Assembly (NCBI RefSeq): GCF_003019035.1
Contig: NZ_CP027447.1
Length of the DNA: 64,000 nt
DNA from: Escherichia coli
GTDB lineage: Bacteria > Pseudomonadota > Gammaproteobacteria > Enterobacterales > Enterobacteriaceae
Direction: 5' to 3' (one strand)
Shown here: positions 5,247 to 45,383 of the stretch, piece after piece
Numbering within the stretch: the stretch's first letter is position 1
Layout of the letters: every line of letters starts with the position of its first letter
Program-made: the position numbers and the translations under genes
The notes under the pieces: model-generated
Told to the model about the DNA's origin: nothing
Database searches by the model: none
The model's input: the letters and a program-made list of their open reading frames with translations, nothing else

Positions 5247-5322
5247 TCCTCTGTAGTTCAGTCGGTAGAACGGCGGACTGTTAATCCGTATGTCACTGGT
5301 TCGAGTCCAGTCAGAGGAGCCA
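5247..5322 (+). tRNA. asnV: tRNA-Asn (GUU)
   Basis: Third identical 76-nt tRNA-Asn copy read directly from the sequence. Confidence 0.93.
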
Positions 5323-6374: not shown

Positions 6375-7454
6375 TTAACTGTTCAAATCAGAAGTCGTAT
6401 TCCCCGGTAGAACAATATTACTGGCAGCAAGTTCGCCCATGTTGTTATATATCGCACAGGCAGCTTCGATGATGGGCATCGCCAGAGCTGCGCCACTCCC
6501 CTCACCTAAACGCATCTCCATATTGAGATAAGGCTCCAGCCCCAAATGCGACAGCGCAATACGCGCCCCTTTTTCTGCCGACAGGTGAGAAGGAATGAGA
6601 TACGGTTTGATCGCAGGAGACATCTGGCAGGCTGCGAGCGCAGCAGCATAAGAAAGAAATCCATCCAGCAACACGGGTAAACCGCAGGAAGCAGCGCCTA
6701 ACATCACGCCAGCCATTCCGACCAAATCAAATCCACCCACTTTTGCCAGAACATTAACGCCATCCTGCGGATTTGGCTGATTCAACGTAATCGCCCGGCG
6801 CACAACATCAATTTTATTAGCCAGTTTATCTGTCGGCAGGTTTGCGCCAATCCCAACCACTTCTTCAGGATCCCGGCCAGTGATTGTGCTGACTATTGCT
6901 GCTGCCGGTGTCGTGTTTGCCATCCCCAGTTCACCTACACCAAACAGCGTGACACCGTTTTTTGCCAGCTCCCGCGTATAACATATGACGTCCAAAAGCA
7001 ACTTTTCAGCCTGACGGCGACTCATTGCCGGAGCTGAAGCAATATTGCCGCTACCTCGTGCGACACGCATGTTGATAAGCCCGGGGATAGGCTCAGCAGT
7101 ATCAATACCAACATCAATTACGTGGACGTTAGCGCCCGCTTGTGCTGCCAGCACACACACGCCGGTTGTTCCGCGGGTCATATTTTCAGCCTGTATGGCT
7201 GTCACTTCTTTTGGAGAAATAGCGACCCCTTCCTCCCAGACGCCGTGATCGGCACACATAACCAGTATCGCTTTTTTGCCCACATGCGGTATGCCATTCA
7301 ACCCCGGCATTCCCGCCAGTTGTACGCCAAGCGCCTCCAGCTTTCCCAGGCTACCAACAGGTTTGAGTAACCCGTCAATATGCCGTTGTGCACGCGACAT
7401 AGCGGCAGGATCGATGGCTGGGATCGTATTCAGTAAATTGGCAAGTGTTTGCAT
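6375..7454 (-). CDS. cobT: Nicotinate-nucleotide--dimethylbenzimidazole phosphoribosyltransferase
   Basis: 359-aa ORF ([40 protein letters not shown]…), canonical CobT; first gene of the cobTSU order. Confidence 0.92.
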
Positions 7455-7465
7455 GTCACGTCTCT

Positions 7466-8209
7466 TTATAGCAGTGCCAGCAGGAAGACCAGTTCACCAA
7501 GCTCTATGGCTGCTCCCAGCGTATCGCCGGTTTGCCCGCCCAGCGTACGTTTGAGAAGCTGACCGAGGATGAAAATCGCCACCATCGTCACCACCATAGC
7601 AGCCACACCATGCATACCCGGCAATAATACGGCAGCAAAAATAGCGGCTAAGCCGAGTGTGACGCAGGTTTGTCGCCCATCAATTTTGCCAATGAACACA
7701 TTGCCAAGCCCTTCTTCCCGCGCATAACGATGACGATACATCAATAATGCGGCAGTCCCGCGGCTGACCGCACATGCTGCCGCCAGCGATGCAAGGATCG
7801 GTTCGCCACGCAGAGCCAACTCGCTTAACACCAGAATCTTTGCCAGTACCACAAAAATCAATGCCAGACCGCCGTGGGTGCCTAAACGGCTATCACGCAT
7901 GATTTCCAACATGCGATCGCGGCTACGTGCAGAAAATACGCCATCACAGGTATCAGCGAGGCCATCCAGGTGGAATCCCCCGGTCATCAGCGCCAGCACA
8001 AGTACGCTAAACAGTGCCGCCAGTGGTACGCCACACCATGCCTGCAGCACCATGAAGACCAGCCCGCTAATCGCGCCAAGCAATAATCCAATCAAAGGAA
8101 AAGTAATAATACCGCGAGAATAATGCTCGAAATCCAGTCCCTGGGACCAGCGACGCGGTACAGGCAGACGCGTAATAAATGAGAGCATCGCCCAAAATAA
8201 TTTACTCAT
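7466..8209 (-). CDS. cobS: Adenosylcobinamide-GDP ribazoletransferase (cobalamin synthase)
   Basis: Multi-TM ORF; start set at [18 protein letters not shown]… giving a 4-nt overlap with the cobU stop (translational coupling). Confidence 0.9.
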
Positions 8210-8751
8210 TTGATTTTTACTCCAATACCCGAAACCACCAGCCATACTTCATTTGCCGCAGCGGCCAACTGCTGGTTTACCCGCCCGGCAATATCACGAA
8301 AATGTCGTGCCAGACGACTCTCCGGCACAATCCCCATTCCCACTTCGTTAGTCACTAATACAACCTTTGCGGGGCAACGTTGGCAGGCAGCAATCAACGA
8401 CTGAATCTCAGCATTAATCGCCTGTTCCATCGCCTGATAATCCCATTCATCAGGGTCTTTATCGCCGCCATAATCAAACAACAGATTAGTCACCATTGTG
8501 GTAACGCATTCCAGCAGCACAGCCTCATTCGGGTTAATGTCTGCATGAATTAATTCATCAAGATGTTGCCAGCGCTCCACTGTGCGCCAGTGCGCCGGGC
8601 GGCCTTGCCGATGATGTTCTATCCGTGCAGCCATCTCATCATCAAGGATTTGCGAGGTAGCGATATACAGAACCTGTGAAGAGTCCCCAATAAGCGCCTC
8701 TGCGTGGCGACTCTTCCCGCTCCGTGCGCCCCCCGTCACCAAAATCATCAT
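8206..8751 (-). CDS. cobU: Adenosylcobinamide kinase / adenosylcobinamide-phosphate guanylyltransferase
   Basis: 181-aa ORF with P-loop ([20 protein letters not shown]…). Confidence 0.92.
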
Positions 8752-8884
8752 ACCGACTCCTGATTCAAATGTATGATGGTATTCATTGAACAGAACAATG
8801 GATCCCCCACCGTTGCTGACCGCAAAACATTTACGCGATTAATACTGCGCGTAATATAATTAAAAATCCAGCATTCTCAATCCA

Positions 8885-9391
8885 TTACGAAAGAAGATGG
8901 CATTGCGGAATAGCCAGACTTCCTCGTGTTAACGTCCGACAAAATGCGTCATTGACAGCGGTTTCTCTGGCATGACAGATTTCATTAAGATAATGGATTA
9001 ATGCTACAGCCCCACCCGCCGGACCATTCAGCAAACGGGCATTGTGTTCTGTAATCAAAATTACCGTCGTTCCCTCAGAATGAGCGAGCCATTCTGGTAC
9101 GGATATCTCGCTTTCAGCTGCTATCAATAGCAGCACTGAATAATCGCTATACGCATCTGATAACGATTGCACAGGCCCACCGTCAAAAGGCTGGAAATCT
9201 TGCTGCCAGTCCTCACCAACAAAACAGGTTATTGGCAATATTTCCGCCAGATGTTTCGCCAGATCCACATCTCCAGATAAGAGGCAAAAAAGAGCTATCG
9301 ATTCGGGTTTTATCGTTTTCATGCCCCTCGCCCTCCACTTAATTTCCTGTAATGGCGGTCTGGTTGATAAGCCATGAAACAAGATTGCCAC
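8885..9391 (-). CDS. Hypothetical protein (145-168 aa) at the position of the missing cbi operon; function unknown
   Basis: Open frame between the riboswitch-like leader and cobU. GTG start at 9391, or ATG (MKTIKPESIALF…) with a GGAGG-like RBS at about 9322. I do not recognise a family; may be a remnant or fusion. Confidence 0.35.
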   Translation of the reverse strand: MAILFHGLSTRPPLQEIKWRARGMKTIKPESIALFCLLSGDVDLAKHLAEILPITCFVGEDWQQDFQPFDGGPVQSLSDAYSDYSVLLLIAAESEISVPEWLAHSEGTTVILITEHNARLLNGPAGGAVALIHYLNEICHARETAVNDAFCRTLTRGSLAIPQCHLLS

Positions 9392-9539
9392 ACCTTAAGT
9401 GCAGCCCTGGTGCCTGTCGGCACTGCGATGAAAGAACTAAATGATGCCGCCATACCCTGATCCTTTCAGGGTGGTAGGGGTATAAAGACGCGCCTGTACT
9501 CTACCGGACGCTTCCGGGCAACCCACTTCCCACCGAAGT

Positions 9540-9705
9540 TGTTGGTATTGACTGACTGGCTGGTCTTCTGGCTTAGCGTCATCCTCTCCCGACCTTCCCA
9601 ATCTCGCGATCAGTGGCATTTTCGGGTTTGTCAGCATTACAGCAGCGGGGGCTGCGAGGGATTTTCACCCTCTTCCCAGGCACAAATGTGCCACACCTGT
9701 CAGCG
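9540..9705 (-). ncRNA. Cobalamin (adenosylcobalamin) riboswitch, cob-operon leader type
   Basis: Minus-strand RNA contains GGGAAGAGGGUGAAAAUCCCUCGCAGCCCCCGCUGCUGUAA (fits the cobalamin core GGGAA…GGUG.AA..CC…GC.G.CCCGC…GU.A), then GCCACUG, then a B12-box AAGCCAGAAGACCAGCC (compare btuB AAGCCCGAAGACCUGCC). Confidence 0.7.
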
Positions 9706-9806
9706 TATGTTATGAGCTGATTTCACTTTTCCCATAACAGGGAAATAACGTTAATTATTCATTCCAGAGTTTATTTAAACCGTCCTCTTTTTTTGGGGCA
9801 TTTACT

Positions 9807-10721
9807 CTATACCGTTTCCATCGCCGCATTATCACTCACTTGCTGTCGATACACCTGCGGCGTAACCTGATAAGTCTGACGGAAAACTTTGCAAAAATAA
9901 CTTGTTTGCGAAAAACCTAAATTACGCGCAATGCTGGCGATGCTCCAGTCACTATGGCACAGTAACTCACGAGCGCTGGCCATCCGTTGTTGGTTTACCC
10001 ACGCATTAAACCCGATTCCATGGTATTTCTTAAATAACTTACTGAAATAATAAGGGCTTAGATAAACGTGCGAGGCGACATCTTCCAGACGCAAATCGTC
10101 TGATAAATGCGCATCAATATAACGTAAAGCTTTTTTCATTTTATTGTCGTGGGGACCAGGCGCACGAGTCTGGCGCAACGAATCTGACTGAGATTTGTTC
10201 TCTTTAATAACCACAAAATTGAGTTGTTTTTTTAGGCAATTTTCTACAATCAACTTCAACAAATCCGCAGAGGCCATAACTCTTGAGTAATCCATCTCAG
10301 GGACTTTGCGAAATTCATTAAGTAATTCGGGATCTGCCTGCCAGCAATCATCGACATTCAGAATATCGACCAAATCGACATCATCATTACGCAGACGAAC
10401 TTGCCCGCACAATACAAAACCAACTAAATGTCCGGCGATTACCAGTGGAATAGAGAAATCGGTTAATCCGGCATGACAGCGATAAATACAAGGCTGATCG
10501 GATTTAGAGGCTTCCAGGCCCCCACAACGATCGCTCATGCGACATCGAGTGCTTAGCTGAGGGTGTTGCCGCATCATCTGACAAAATGGAGTGAAGTTAA
10601 ACAGCTCGGAAATTTCATCGCCGTGAATATTGACCACGACAACCGCAAGGCTGGTCGCCTGCGCAAAATCCTGCGCGATTTTATTAATGAGTTCTGAATT
10701 AAGTGTCGCCGCAGAAATCAT
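9807..10721 (-). CDS. pocR: AraC-family regulator PocR (activator of pdu/cob in response to 1,2-propanediol)
   Basis: 304-aa ORF with C-terminal AraC HTH (…IASIARNLGFSQTSYFCKVFRQTYQVTPQVYRQ…); sits between the cob leader and pduF as in Salmonella. Confidence 0.88.
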   Translation of the reverse strand: MISAATLNSELINKIAQDFAQATSLAVVVVNIHGDEISELFNFTPFCQMMRQHPQLSTRCRMSDRCGGLEASKSDQPCIYRCHAGLTDFSIPLVIAGHLVGFVLCGQVRLRNDDVDLVDILNVDDCWQADPELLNEFRKVPEMDYSRVMASADLLKLIVENCLKKQLNFVVIKENKSQSDSLRQTRAPGPHDNKMKKALRYIDAHLSDDLRLEDVASHVYLSPYYFSKLFKKYHGIGFNAWVNQQRMASARELLCHSDWSIASIARNLGFSQTSYFCKVFRQTYQVTPQVYRQQVSDNAAMETV

Positions 10722-10923
10722 GATAAAACCTCCCAGTTAATTTATTGTTATAGCAAAACAATTGTTTTACATTTAATCTTCACATCATCCTTGATGATTT
10801 ACTGACGAGAAGCACAAAGGACAATAACAAAAGCCTCCGTGAAGCGGGAGACTTTTTAATAAGTTCGGAAAGCAGATCACAAACAGTAAAAAAATAAACG
10901 TTTATAACTGCCAGATTATTTCG

Positions 10924-12244: not shown

Positions 12245-12529
12245 ATGCAACAAGAAGCGTTAGGAATGGTAGAAACCAAAGGCTTAACTGCCGCCATAGA
12301 GGCCGCGGACGCCATGGTGAAGTCGGCAAATGTTTTGCTGGTCGGCTACGAAAAAATAGGTTCCGGGCTGGTGACCGTCATCGTTCGTGGTGATGTCGGG
12401 GCGGTAAAAGCGGCAACAGACGCAGGTGCCGCAGCTGCGCGTAACGTCGGCGAAGTAAAAGCCGTGCACATTATTCCCCGCCCACATACCGATGTCGAAA
12501 AAATCTTACCAAAGGGAATTAACCCATGA
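12245..12529 (+). CDS. pduA: Bacterial microcompartment shell protein PduA (BMC-H)
   Basis: 94-aa BMC-domain protein ([30 protein letters not shown]…). Confidence 0.93.
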
Positions 12530-34907: not shown

Positions 34908-35059
34908 GGTCATTCTCCTTTACGATGATAACCGTCGCGTAAGCAAAAAATTGCCCCATTTTTTTGGATTCCTCAGCGACAACAACTGTCGATTTTTAGT
35001 AAATATCTATCCGGTACGAAGCCCGGCCTCTTGGTATGAATGATTGGTTTGAAGCAAAA

Positions 35060-35095
35060 AATAACCGACGCTGATGAAACGTCGGTTTTTAGTCA
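35060..35095 (-). terminator. Candidate terminator after yeeY
   Basis: Hairpin aaccgacg-ctgatgaaa-cgtcggtt; T-tract on the minus strand. Confidence 0.45.
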
Positions 35096-35173
35096 TTTTT
35101 TGACAGCGGCGCATTGTGCCTAAATGGGGGAGAAATGACAAGAGAATGAGAGGCTTGTCATAATAATTTTTCT

Positions 35174-37399: not shown

Positions 37400-37450
37400 A
37401 TGACACGCGTTCAATTTAAACACCACCATCATCACCATCATCCTGACTAG
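37400..37450 (+). CDS. hisL: his operon leader peptide (7 consecutive His codons)
   Basis: atgacacgcgttcaatttaaacaccaccatcatcaccatcatcctgactag translates to MTRVQFKHHHHHHHPD*. Confidence 0.93.
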   Translation: MTRVQFKHHHHHHHPD

Positions 37451-37513
37451 TCTTTCAGGCGATGTGTGCTGGAAGACATTCAGATCTTCCAGTGGTGCAT
37501 GAACGCATGAGAA

Positions 37514-37549
37514 AGCCCCCGGAAGATCATCTTCCGGGGGCTTTTTTAT
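37514..37549 (+). terminator. his attenuator terminator
   Basis: agcccccggaaga-tcat-cttccgggggct followed by tttttatt, between hisL and hisG. Confidence 0.9.
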
Positions 37550-44709: not shown

Positions 44710-45383
44710 TGCGCCTATAAGGCTCTCTTACCAGCCGCGCCCTAACAGGCGCACACGATCTGACATTTGCATCCAACTTCGTTACTTACGGCCCGTAAAC
44801 GGGCTGCCCGGATAGGGAATCGATAACTGCTCTCCCATTTTATCCTCTTCAAGCTGGTGCTTTATGTAATCCTGTATCTTCGCCGTGTTCTTACCCACCG
44901 TATCGACGTAATACCCTCTGCACCAGAACTCCCTGTTCCTGTATTTGAATTTCAAATCAACAAACTGCTCGTAAAGCATTAGACTGCTTTTCCCTTTCAG
45001 ATATCCCATAAAGCCGGATACGCTCATTTTGGGCGGGATCTCCACAAGCATATGGATATGATCTGCACAGCATTCAGCTTCCAGAATCCGTACACTTTTC
45101 CACTCACACAGCTTTCTCAAAATACAGCCTATTGCTCTACGCTTCTCTCTGTAGAACACCTGTCTTCGGTATTTTGGCGCAAATACTATGTGATATTTAC
45201 AGTTCCATCGGGTGTGCGCTAAGCTCTTTTCGTTCCCCATTGGGACCCCCTTTTGATTTCTTGTTTGACACTTGCAGTTGCCAGACCGCAAGGTGTTTTA
45301 ACAAATCAAAAGGGGTTTTAATAACTGGCTCAAAGCTGAAAGCTTTCCGGAACCCCCAGCCTAGCTGGGGGTTTTCTGTGCAC
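44710..45383 (-). mobile_element. IS200-type insertion sequence (IS200/IS605 family); boundaries approximate (about +/-40 bp)
   Basis: Contains a tnpA almost identical to my memory of Salmonella IS200 TnpA, plus the characteristic upstream stem-loops (cccccagctaggctggggg; RBS-occluding hairpin). No terminal inverted repeats are expected for this family. Confidence 0.8.
44782..45237 (-). CDS. tnpA: IS200 transposase TnpA (HUH / Y1 family)
   Basis: MGNEKSLAHTRWNCKYHIVFAPKYRRQVFY…CCADHIHMLVEIPPKMSVSGFMGYLKGKSS…; HxH motif present; ORF track begins at an upstream in-frame Met. Confidence 0.9.
   Translation of the reverse strand, partial: GNEKSLAHTRWNCKYHIVFAPKYRRQVFYREKRRAIGCILRKLCEWKSVRILEAECCADHIHMLVEIPPKMSVSGFMGYLKGKSSLMLYEQFVDLKFKYRNREFWCRGYYVDTVGKNTAKIQDYIKHQLEEDKMGEQLSIPYPGSPFTGRK

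Follow-up and report, generated by a model that had tools for sequence, protein, structure and literature searches.

What is the short reading frame that lies between a cobalamin riboswitch and cobU in some strains of Escherichia coli, and for what reason is it still open? The question is posed by a window of 64,000 nucleotides of E. coli DNA, i.e., the whole stretch which was analysed (RefSeq assembly GCF_003019035.1, contig NZ_CP027447.1). It is of the pdu+ type, which comprises about 12% of the complete E. coli genomes, and 1.1 kb around the locus (window positions 8700–9800) match strain CFSAN061771 and others with 100% identity. Along the minus strand pduF is followed by pocR, a riboswitch aptamer, the ORF in question, cobU, cobS, cobT, and ldtA; the pdu operon is on the opposite strand and starts at 12245. 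Literature searches returned no paper on this ORF, which we designate cbiG'.

The Reading Frame and Its Start

The ORF is located on the minus strand at 8885–9391, exactly as described in the original prediction; it encodes 168 aa if translation starts at GTG 9391, and 145 aa if it starts at ATG 9322. Of these two candidate starts only the second stands up to comparison. The 145-aa form is conserved, and the GTG start is not conserved in other lineages: in seven other Escherichia lineages an in-frame stop is situated 7–13 codons before the ATG, and the 168-aa version was rejected for this reason. Its 5' extension (9323–9391, minus strand) is not part of the gene and overlaps, in another frame, with a mini-ORF described below. 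ATG 9322 aligns with Met1 of CbiG, and the cbiG' AUG is preceded by a GGAGG of its own. In RefSeq the 145-aa form is a hypothetical protein (WP_001524956.1). The gene proper (8885–9322, minus strand) is the equivalent of CbiG residues 1 to about 150; it starts 219 nt downstream of the riboswitch aptamer and ends 133 nt upstream of cobU. As it has a homology to CbiG at an E-value of 2e-20 and is conserved in eight lineages, it is beyond a chance ORF.

Other RNA elements are present in the window. An Rfam match between pocR and pduF (10782–10865, plus strand) is the sRNA STnc230, which E. fergusonii, E. albertii, and E. marmotae have as well. Further Rfam matches are STnc490 (45250–45373, minus strand), STnc240 (35054–35128, minus strand), and a his operon leader (37426–37549, plus strand). 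Three tRNA genes are positioned at 1018–1090, 2839–2911, and 5247–5319, two of them within the annotated locus (L001), where they are tRNA-Asn genes, and the third outside of it.

Homology to CbiG and Loss of Enzyme Features

The original prediction could not assign the ORF to a cbi or cob family. An assignment is now available. The NCBIfam model NF004463 for full-length CbiG matches residues 24–142 of the 168-aa form with positions 1–126 of 351 of the profile (E 2.3e-20); the score is 73 bits versus a family cut-off of 546. The contention that the N-terminus lacks the CbiA P-loop was correct: neither Pfam nor NCBIfam yielded a CbiA match for the ORF, i.e., no P-loop ATPase and no GATase_3 domain. 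We collected cobU loci from 80 Enterobacteriaceae and searched them with the 145-aa protein using tblastn. In about 50 of the 80 the first 112–125 codons of cbiG were matched, always from residue 1, with identities of 36–47% and Shimwellia as an outlier at 30%. Among the species matched, those outside of Escherichia have cbiG 8.1 kb upstream of cobU, whereas the Escherichia match is directly upstream of cobU. The alignment to CbiG runs from residue 1 to about residue 150. Fragment homology to the Salmonella cbi genes, possibly frame-disrupted, had been envisaged; the start of cbiG is indeed matched, yet the frame is not disrupted.

Salmonella CbiG contains the Pfam domains CbiG_N (residues 54–134), CbiG_mid (140–218), and CbiG_C (231–347). 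No CbiG domain was detected by Pfam in four Escherichia ORFs, the E-value limit being 1 for the window ORF and 10 for the other three homologs. The sole Pfam match when the ORF and three orthologs were scanned was Nup96 at E 0.014, which was taken as chance. A sequence search of the PDB with the family profile returned gp41 noise only. An AF2 model reached a moderately confident pLDDT of 74, with an input alignment of mostly genuine CbiG sequences.

The motifs of the enzyme are damaged. The FIGATGIAVRVLAPLV motif, almost invariant in enterobacterial CbiG, reads LIAAESEISV in the alignment of the ORF, with a deletion of seven residues which lies inside GATGIAVRVLAPLV. LLSGHxGGAN of CbiG is LLNGPAGGAV in the ORF, with the His lost, and PVITTATDVN is replaced by RETAVNDAF. 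The operon holds no gene between cbiA and cbiP, solely the riboswitch, the mini-ORF, the ORF, and cobUST. Judged by sequence, the ORF is the N-terminal 40%, approximately, of CbiG without the parts and motifs which define the enzyme. On the same grounds it cannot be expected to be a cobalt-precorrin-5A hydrolase.

The Leader, the Mini-ORF, and the Deletion Scars

Upstream on the same strand, the cob leader has a full-length aptamer of the cobalamin riboswitch (9541–9715, minus; Rfam RF00174, 109.4 bits, full model 1–189). The aptamer is nearly invariant in seven Escherichia lineages, with RF00174 scoring 106–113 bits in E. fergusonii, E. albertii, and E. marmotae. The cbiA AUG is immediately preceded by the hairpin ACCCUGA-AAGGA-UCAGGGU (9454–9472, minus strand), the presumed expression platform, which carries a Shine-Dalgarno sequence in its loop. 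The hairpin is the centroid structure; its energy is unremarkable versus shuffles (z 0.08). The sequence is kept in all Escherichia lineages, and Salmonella has one loop change. We presume that it operates as a B12-dependent trap for the ribosome binding site as in the Salmonella cob leader. With a complete aptamer upstream, a conserved hairpin ahead of an AUG, and, as the only terminator-like element in between, a weak hairpin described below, cbiG' has the features of a putative cobalamin-riboswitch gene.

The earlier view that the ORF is the first one after the leader and occupies the former cbiA position does not hold. The ancestral cbiA ATG (9453) opens a separate mini-ORF of 44 codons instead (9319–9453, minus strand), which precedes the 145-aa ORF and is a scar; its TGA overlaps the cbiG' ATG (ATGA). 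As Salmonella references we used L084 (pduF through cbiP) and L023 (cbiE through cobT). Only three blocks of the window match Salmonella: 9719–9445, which comprises the cob leader, the riboswitch, and the cbiA ATG with two more codons at 82% identity; 9334–9197, which is the cbiG start; and 8787–8701, which consists of the last 37 nt or so of cbiP and the start of cobU. The surviving cbiA codons are at 9453–9445, and the homology to Salmonella stops after ATGGCGGCA. The mini-ORF peptide (MAASFSSFIAVPTGT...) was considered as an N-terminus of CbiA, and its end as a C-terminus of CbiF; this was abandoned because beyond ATGGCGGCA the DNA alignment is no better than shuffles, and we retain only the start codon and, in E. 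fergusonii, the position of the cbiF stop. The interior of the mini-ORF has no detectable homology to Salmonella cbiA or cbiF, and the ORF tail together with the 133-nt spacer, compared with Salmonella cbiG–cbiP by tblastx and blastn, matched only the cbiP end.

By coordinates the mini-ORF is intact in six lineages, with 44 codons and the ATGA overlap. In E. albertii it appears intact by hand translation of the alignment, blastn giving no match. E. fergusonii has 49 codons and uses the ancestral cbiF stop, 20 nt into cbiG'. At the amino acid level, the mini-ORFs of E. coli and E. fergusonii show no conservation. Its stop overlaps the start of the ORF in every lineage, in E. fergusonii with a different stop codon.

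Because remnants of cbiA, cbiG, and cbiP and the E. fergusonii cbiF stop follow the Salmonella order behind a leader of 82% identity, the locus shows that the Escherichia ancestor had a complete Salmonella-type cbi operon at this site which was lost by internal deletions. The ancestor would have carried a pdu–pocR–cob cluster of the Salmonella type that was later reduced. At least two internal deletions are implied, from cbiA codon 4 to the end of cbiF and from mid-cbiG to the end of cbiP; in the simplest history they would total about 13.5 kb.

Within the mini-ORF a weak terminator-like hairpin was observed (9405–9387, minus strand; GCTGCAC..GTGTGGC, then a T-rich run). Within the group of E. 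coli, E. marmotae, and E. whittamii both the T-run and 5 bp of the stem are kept. The changes are one-sided without compensatory pairs, and the hairpin is broken in E. albertii and absent in E. fergusonii; no conclusion is based on it. It could be a translation-sensitive attenuator or nothing.

Upstream, pocR (9807–10721) is on the same strand, with its stop only about 90 nt from the riboswitch, compared with about 320 nt in Salmonella (in L084 pocR ends at 2697 and homology to the window starts from 3020). In Salmonella the region between pocR and the aptamer holds the cob promoter and the 5' leader. As the minus strand at 9716–9806 of the window has no sigma-70-like site, transcripts of the riboswitch unit may originate from read-through of pocR.

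The Spacer and cobUST

Downstream of cbiG' is the 133-nt spacer (8752–8884, minus strand), well conserved across the genus and with the 3' end of cbiP as its final 37 nt or so, and then the retained 3' end of the cob operon, cobU, cobS, and cobT (6375–8751, minus strand), which is responsible for nucleotide-loop assembly and cobinamide salvage. cobU (8206–8751; Pfam CobU, E 2e-64) has its own Shine-Dalgarno sequence. Immediately after the ORF stop there is a sigma-70-like site, TTGAGA-16-TATATT (8880–8853, minus strand), with 10 of 12 matches. The count of such promoter-like sites is not above shuffle expectation. The spacer is 99% conserved within E. coli, and the −10 element is poorly conserved in other species. 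The site is a candidate for a riboswitch-independent cobU promoter; if real, it would explain the expression of cobUST in strains without pdu. A convincing terminator between the ORF and cobU was not found. A 25-codon cbiP' ORF across the cobU start (8748–8825) was rejected: upstream it is not conserved, as 11 nt are deleted there in strain E69.

Distribution Across Escherichia

Among 5,426 complete E. coli genomes, 644 carry the ORF in full. In most other E. coli only the last 170 nt, approximately, are left, annotated as a pseudogene beside an IS4 remnant as in CFT073; in some a deletion joins the ORF to pduV. In total, about 88% of E. coli lineages have lost pdu and, together with it, part of the ORF, with cobUST retained. 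Since cobUST persists where the ORF is truncated, the latter is dispensable in most E. coli. Truncation has been repeated in E. coli and Shigella.

The tail of the E. coli ORF (8885–9056) occurs as at least two allele types. The CFT073 remnant (L002, 4001–4163) corresponds to an allele with a stop at codon 140 plus a 9-nt in-frame deletion, and is cut at about codon 91 near the IS4 fragment. Its 87% identity was at one point taken for a deep haplotype; actually, it is due to the 9-nt deletion and a few substitutions.

A HMMER search with the family profile against 1.84 billion representative proteins produced 35 matches only, which comprise the versions from Escherichia, fragments, and a small number of true CbiG proteins. 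The riboswitch, the mini-ORF, and cbiG' are common to E. coli, strain E69, E. whittamii, E. albertii, E. marmotae, Escherichia sp. E4736, the P0020 clade, and E. fergusonii. The full layout including cobUST is also found in E69, E. whittamii, E. marmotae, E4736, and the P0020 clade. We take the layout to be ancestral to the genus Escherichia. A second B12 riboswitch besides btuB exists in about 12% of complete E. coli and in all seven other locus-retaining lineages which were examined.

Two species depart from the full layout. In E. albertii (L086, 4436–4961 and 5701–5877) cobU is a pseudogene with at least four deletions and about ten stops, and cobT is absent; a 144-codon ORF is intact by coordinates. 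The species probably is without cobinamide salvage, as judged from these lesions. Its cobS and pdu genes look intact. In E. fergusonii cobUST is cleanly deleted, and an ORF of 156 aa, the mini-ORF, and the riboswitch (113 bits) persist species-wide. Here cbiG' is followed by ldtA (L090, 6471–6700), and between riboswitch and ldtA only these two small ORFs are found. At the cbiG'–ldtA junction TGTCGGATAAAGCATTTACGCTGTATCCGGCA, read by eye, is presumably a REP-like repeat. Just past ldtA a glycyl-radical-enzyme microcompartment cluster is located. As both ORFs persist with a dead cobU in E. albertii and with cobUST deleted in E. fergusonii, the retention of the ORF appears to be independent of cobUST.

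Selection on the Reading Frame

The truncation of cbiG is common to all lineages, therefore the divergence between lineages post-dates it. The Nei-Gojobori (NG86) dN/dS of the ORF has a mean of 0.38 with a range of 0.27–0.61. The respective values for pduF, pocR, cobU, cobS, cobT, and ldtA are 0.04–0.13. Control frames of the same alignment yield 0.75–1.02. The antisense frame which shares the wobble positions has 0.39, and no antisense ORF is open there. Variable sites at codon positions 1, 2, and 3 are 0.36, 0.30, and 0.54.

The constraint is unevenly distributed. By region, dN/dS is 0.23 for codons 1–67, 0.30 for codons 91–116, and 0.53–0.66 elsewhere. In a permutation test the observed substitutions were re-placed while the mutation types were kept; the effective ratio was 0.23–0.57 for codons 1–67 (P 0.0003–0.02) and 0.6–1.0 from codon 68 to the end. 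Against E. fergusonii, where dS exceeds 1.2 and synonymous sites are saturated, the N-terminal part is identical at 45 of its 67 residues, compared with 25 of 77 for the remainder.

The ORF comparison of eight lineages has neither stops nor frameshifts, and all indels observed are multiples of three. With randomly placed substitutions in four phylogenetically disjoint contrasts the chance of a stop-free frame is about 7e-6. Within the species the picture is different. Among four E. coli alleles the ORF has 5 synonymous and 14 non-synonymous segregating sites, compared with 13 and 4 in cobU. A premature TAA is present at codon 140 in CFT073 and the 2015C-4136CT1 allele type, and another E. coli allele is without three codons. 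Codon usage, proposed as a check, shows a drift (GC3 0.38 in the ORF versus 0.59 in whole Salmonella cbiG and 0.61 in its first 450 nt).

The frame as a whole has neither the disruptions nor the dN/dS of about 1 of a neutral pseudogene; only the part from codon 68 to the end resembles one. In our reading the whole frame, above all its N-terminal beta-alpha-beta part, appears to be maintained by selection, with the C-terminal half only kept open. The original alternatives had been a scar fusion, a pseudogene, or a small gene under B12 control. They are supported in part: a deletion relic behind a riboswitch it is; a neutral pseudogene it probably is not, given the open frame and a dN/dS of 0.38.

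Why Is the Reading Frame Kept?

We propose that the ORF, as the 5' 40% or so of cbiG, is a deletion relic which probably is still translated under B12 control and selectively kept. Binding of B12 would block initiation at the cbiA AUG. At low B12 the scar ORF would be translated first, and its ribosomes would then start anew at the cbiG' AUG which overlaps its stop. When B12 is scarce, the cell would thus make a small N-domain of CbiG, still folded yet without catalytic activity.

What the selection acts upon is answered with less assurance. At somewhat below even confidence we consider it possible that selection acts on the protein as such, which would be a binding or partner module linked to pdu and corrinoid handling. 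More tentative is its specific version, an exapted CbiG N-domain, i.e., a B12-repressed protein with a new, non-catalytic job in propanediol use or corrinoid handling. Its own riboswitch and the scar uORF would then serve as a translational gate, independent of cobUST as in E. fergusonii. After the pathway had been deleted, the domain would have gained Escherichia-specific sequences such as ITCFxGE[DE]WQQxF and ARxLxGxxGxAxxLIxYLN.

Ribosome transit may aid read-through into cobUST where these genes are present, and we regard it as rather unlikely that this is the main reason for retention. In its pure form, a relay acting in cis, the peptide would be irrelevant: at low B12 ribosomes would cover about 570 nt of RNA next to the leader and block Rho-dependent termination or decay ahead of cobUST. 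The conserved aptamer and cbiA ribosome binding site hairpin would fit, as would the missing terminator ahead of cobU, the stop/start overlap which is conserved with different codons in different lineages, and the fact that the mini-ORF throughout, like the last 55% of the ORF, varies almost freely and never gains stops. However, amino acid constraint in codons 1–67 and 91–116 is not explained by a relay, while synonymous sites are free (dS 0.33–0.39). Moreover, the ORFs are intact where there is nothing to relay to, with cobU long dead in E. albertii and cobUST missing in E. fergusonii; cobU has its own Shine-Dalgarno sequence and possibly its own promoter in the spacer; and strains without pdu keep cobUST without the riboswitch-ORF unit. 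On balance we consider a relay in cis alone to be unlikely. Since it leaves the N-terminal conservation and the survival in E. albertii and E. fergusonii unexplained, a role of the protein is favoured.

Still less probable, in fact improbable, is a dead relic, an untranslated or functionless fragment which decays slowly and is open by accident. The catalytic domains and motifs are gone, dN/dS is 3 to 10 times that of the neighbouring genes, polymorphism within E. coli is near-neutral and includes the premature-stop allele of CFT073 and 2015C-4136CT1, GC3 drifts towards AT, and truncation has been repeated in E. coli and Shigella. Yet eight lineages are without stops or frameshifts despite near-saturation versus E. 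fergusonii (P of about 7e-6), codon periodicity is present with control frames at 0.75–1.0, and codons 1–67 have a significant synonymous excess. Over the same period E. albertii cobU displays what real decay looks like. A working short CbiG or another enzyme of cobalamin biosynthesis, as implied by the database names 'cobalamin biosynthesis protein' and 'Cobalt-precorrin 5A hydrolase' and by the N-terminal homology, has a practically negligible probability because 73 bits compare with a cut-off of 546, CbiG_mid and CbiG_C are missing and CbiG_N escapes detection, the GATGIAVRVLAPLV, SGHxGGAN, and TTATDVN motifs are destroyed, and all other cbi genes are missing, so that no gene between cbiA and cbiP is left at the operon to make or consume the substrate.

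As it departs from the CbiG family in architecture, curated score, motifs, and operon context, the ORF should not be filed as CbiG or as 'cobalamin biosynthesis protein'. Counting it as CbiG overstates the B12 capacity of pdu+ E. coli, including propanediol-using gut pathobionts. The loss of an ancestral cbi operon bears on the 'loss and reacquisition' account of B12 synthesis in enterics, which Lawrence and Roth reportedly put forward in 1996. The E. fergusonii locus is a simple natural system in which to ask for what reason a riboswitch and part of a gene persist after the rest of their operon is gone. The interest of the ORF would increase only with the demonstration of a new function for the protein.

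Comparison With Known Systems

The closest relative is CbiG of the anaerobic pathway in Salmonella, Citrobacter, and Klebsiella, a protein of 351 aa. The ORF shares its N-terminal homology and retains 145 of the 351 residues, but the middle and the CobE-like C-terminal domains of CbiG are missing. The neighbouring cbi genes are absent around the ORF, so it has neither substrate nor pathway. A precedent for a single CbiG domain as a separate small protein exists in CobE, which stands alone in the aerobic pathway. However, CobE is the C-terminal domain (Pfam CbiG_C), whereas cbiG' represents the opposite end.

The leader has its counterpart in the Salmonella cob leader, a B12 riboswitch which controls cbiA translation via a hairpin at the ribosome binding site. 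Here the aptamer and the hairpin as well as the start codon of cbiA have been kept, with 82% identity and the same spacing. In Salmonella the leader regulates cbiA, whereas its Escherichia counterpart precedes a scar ORF which is coupled by ATGA to cbiG'. The Salmonella leader of about 190 nt upstream of the aptamer and the gap of about 320 nt after pocR are reduced to about 90 nt.

Finally, the 48-codon 'cobalamin biosynthesis protein' pseudogene of the CFT073 type has the same locus and origin; it is the 3' third of the ORF, left by an IS4-associated deletion. In contrast to this remnant, the full ORF keeps its start, its riboswitch, and its frame in eight lineages, with purifying selection on the N-terminal part.
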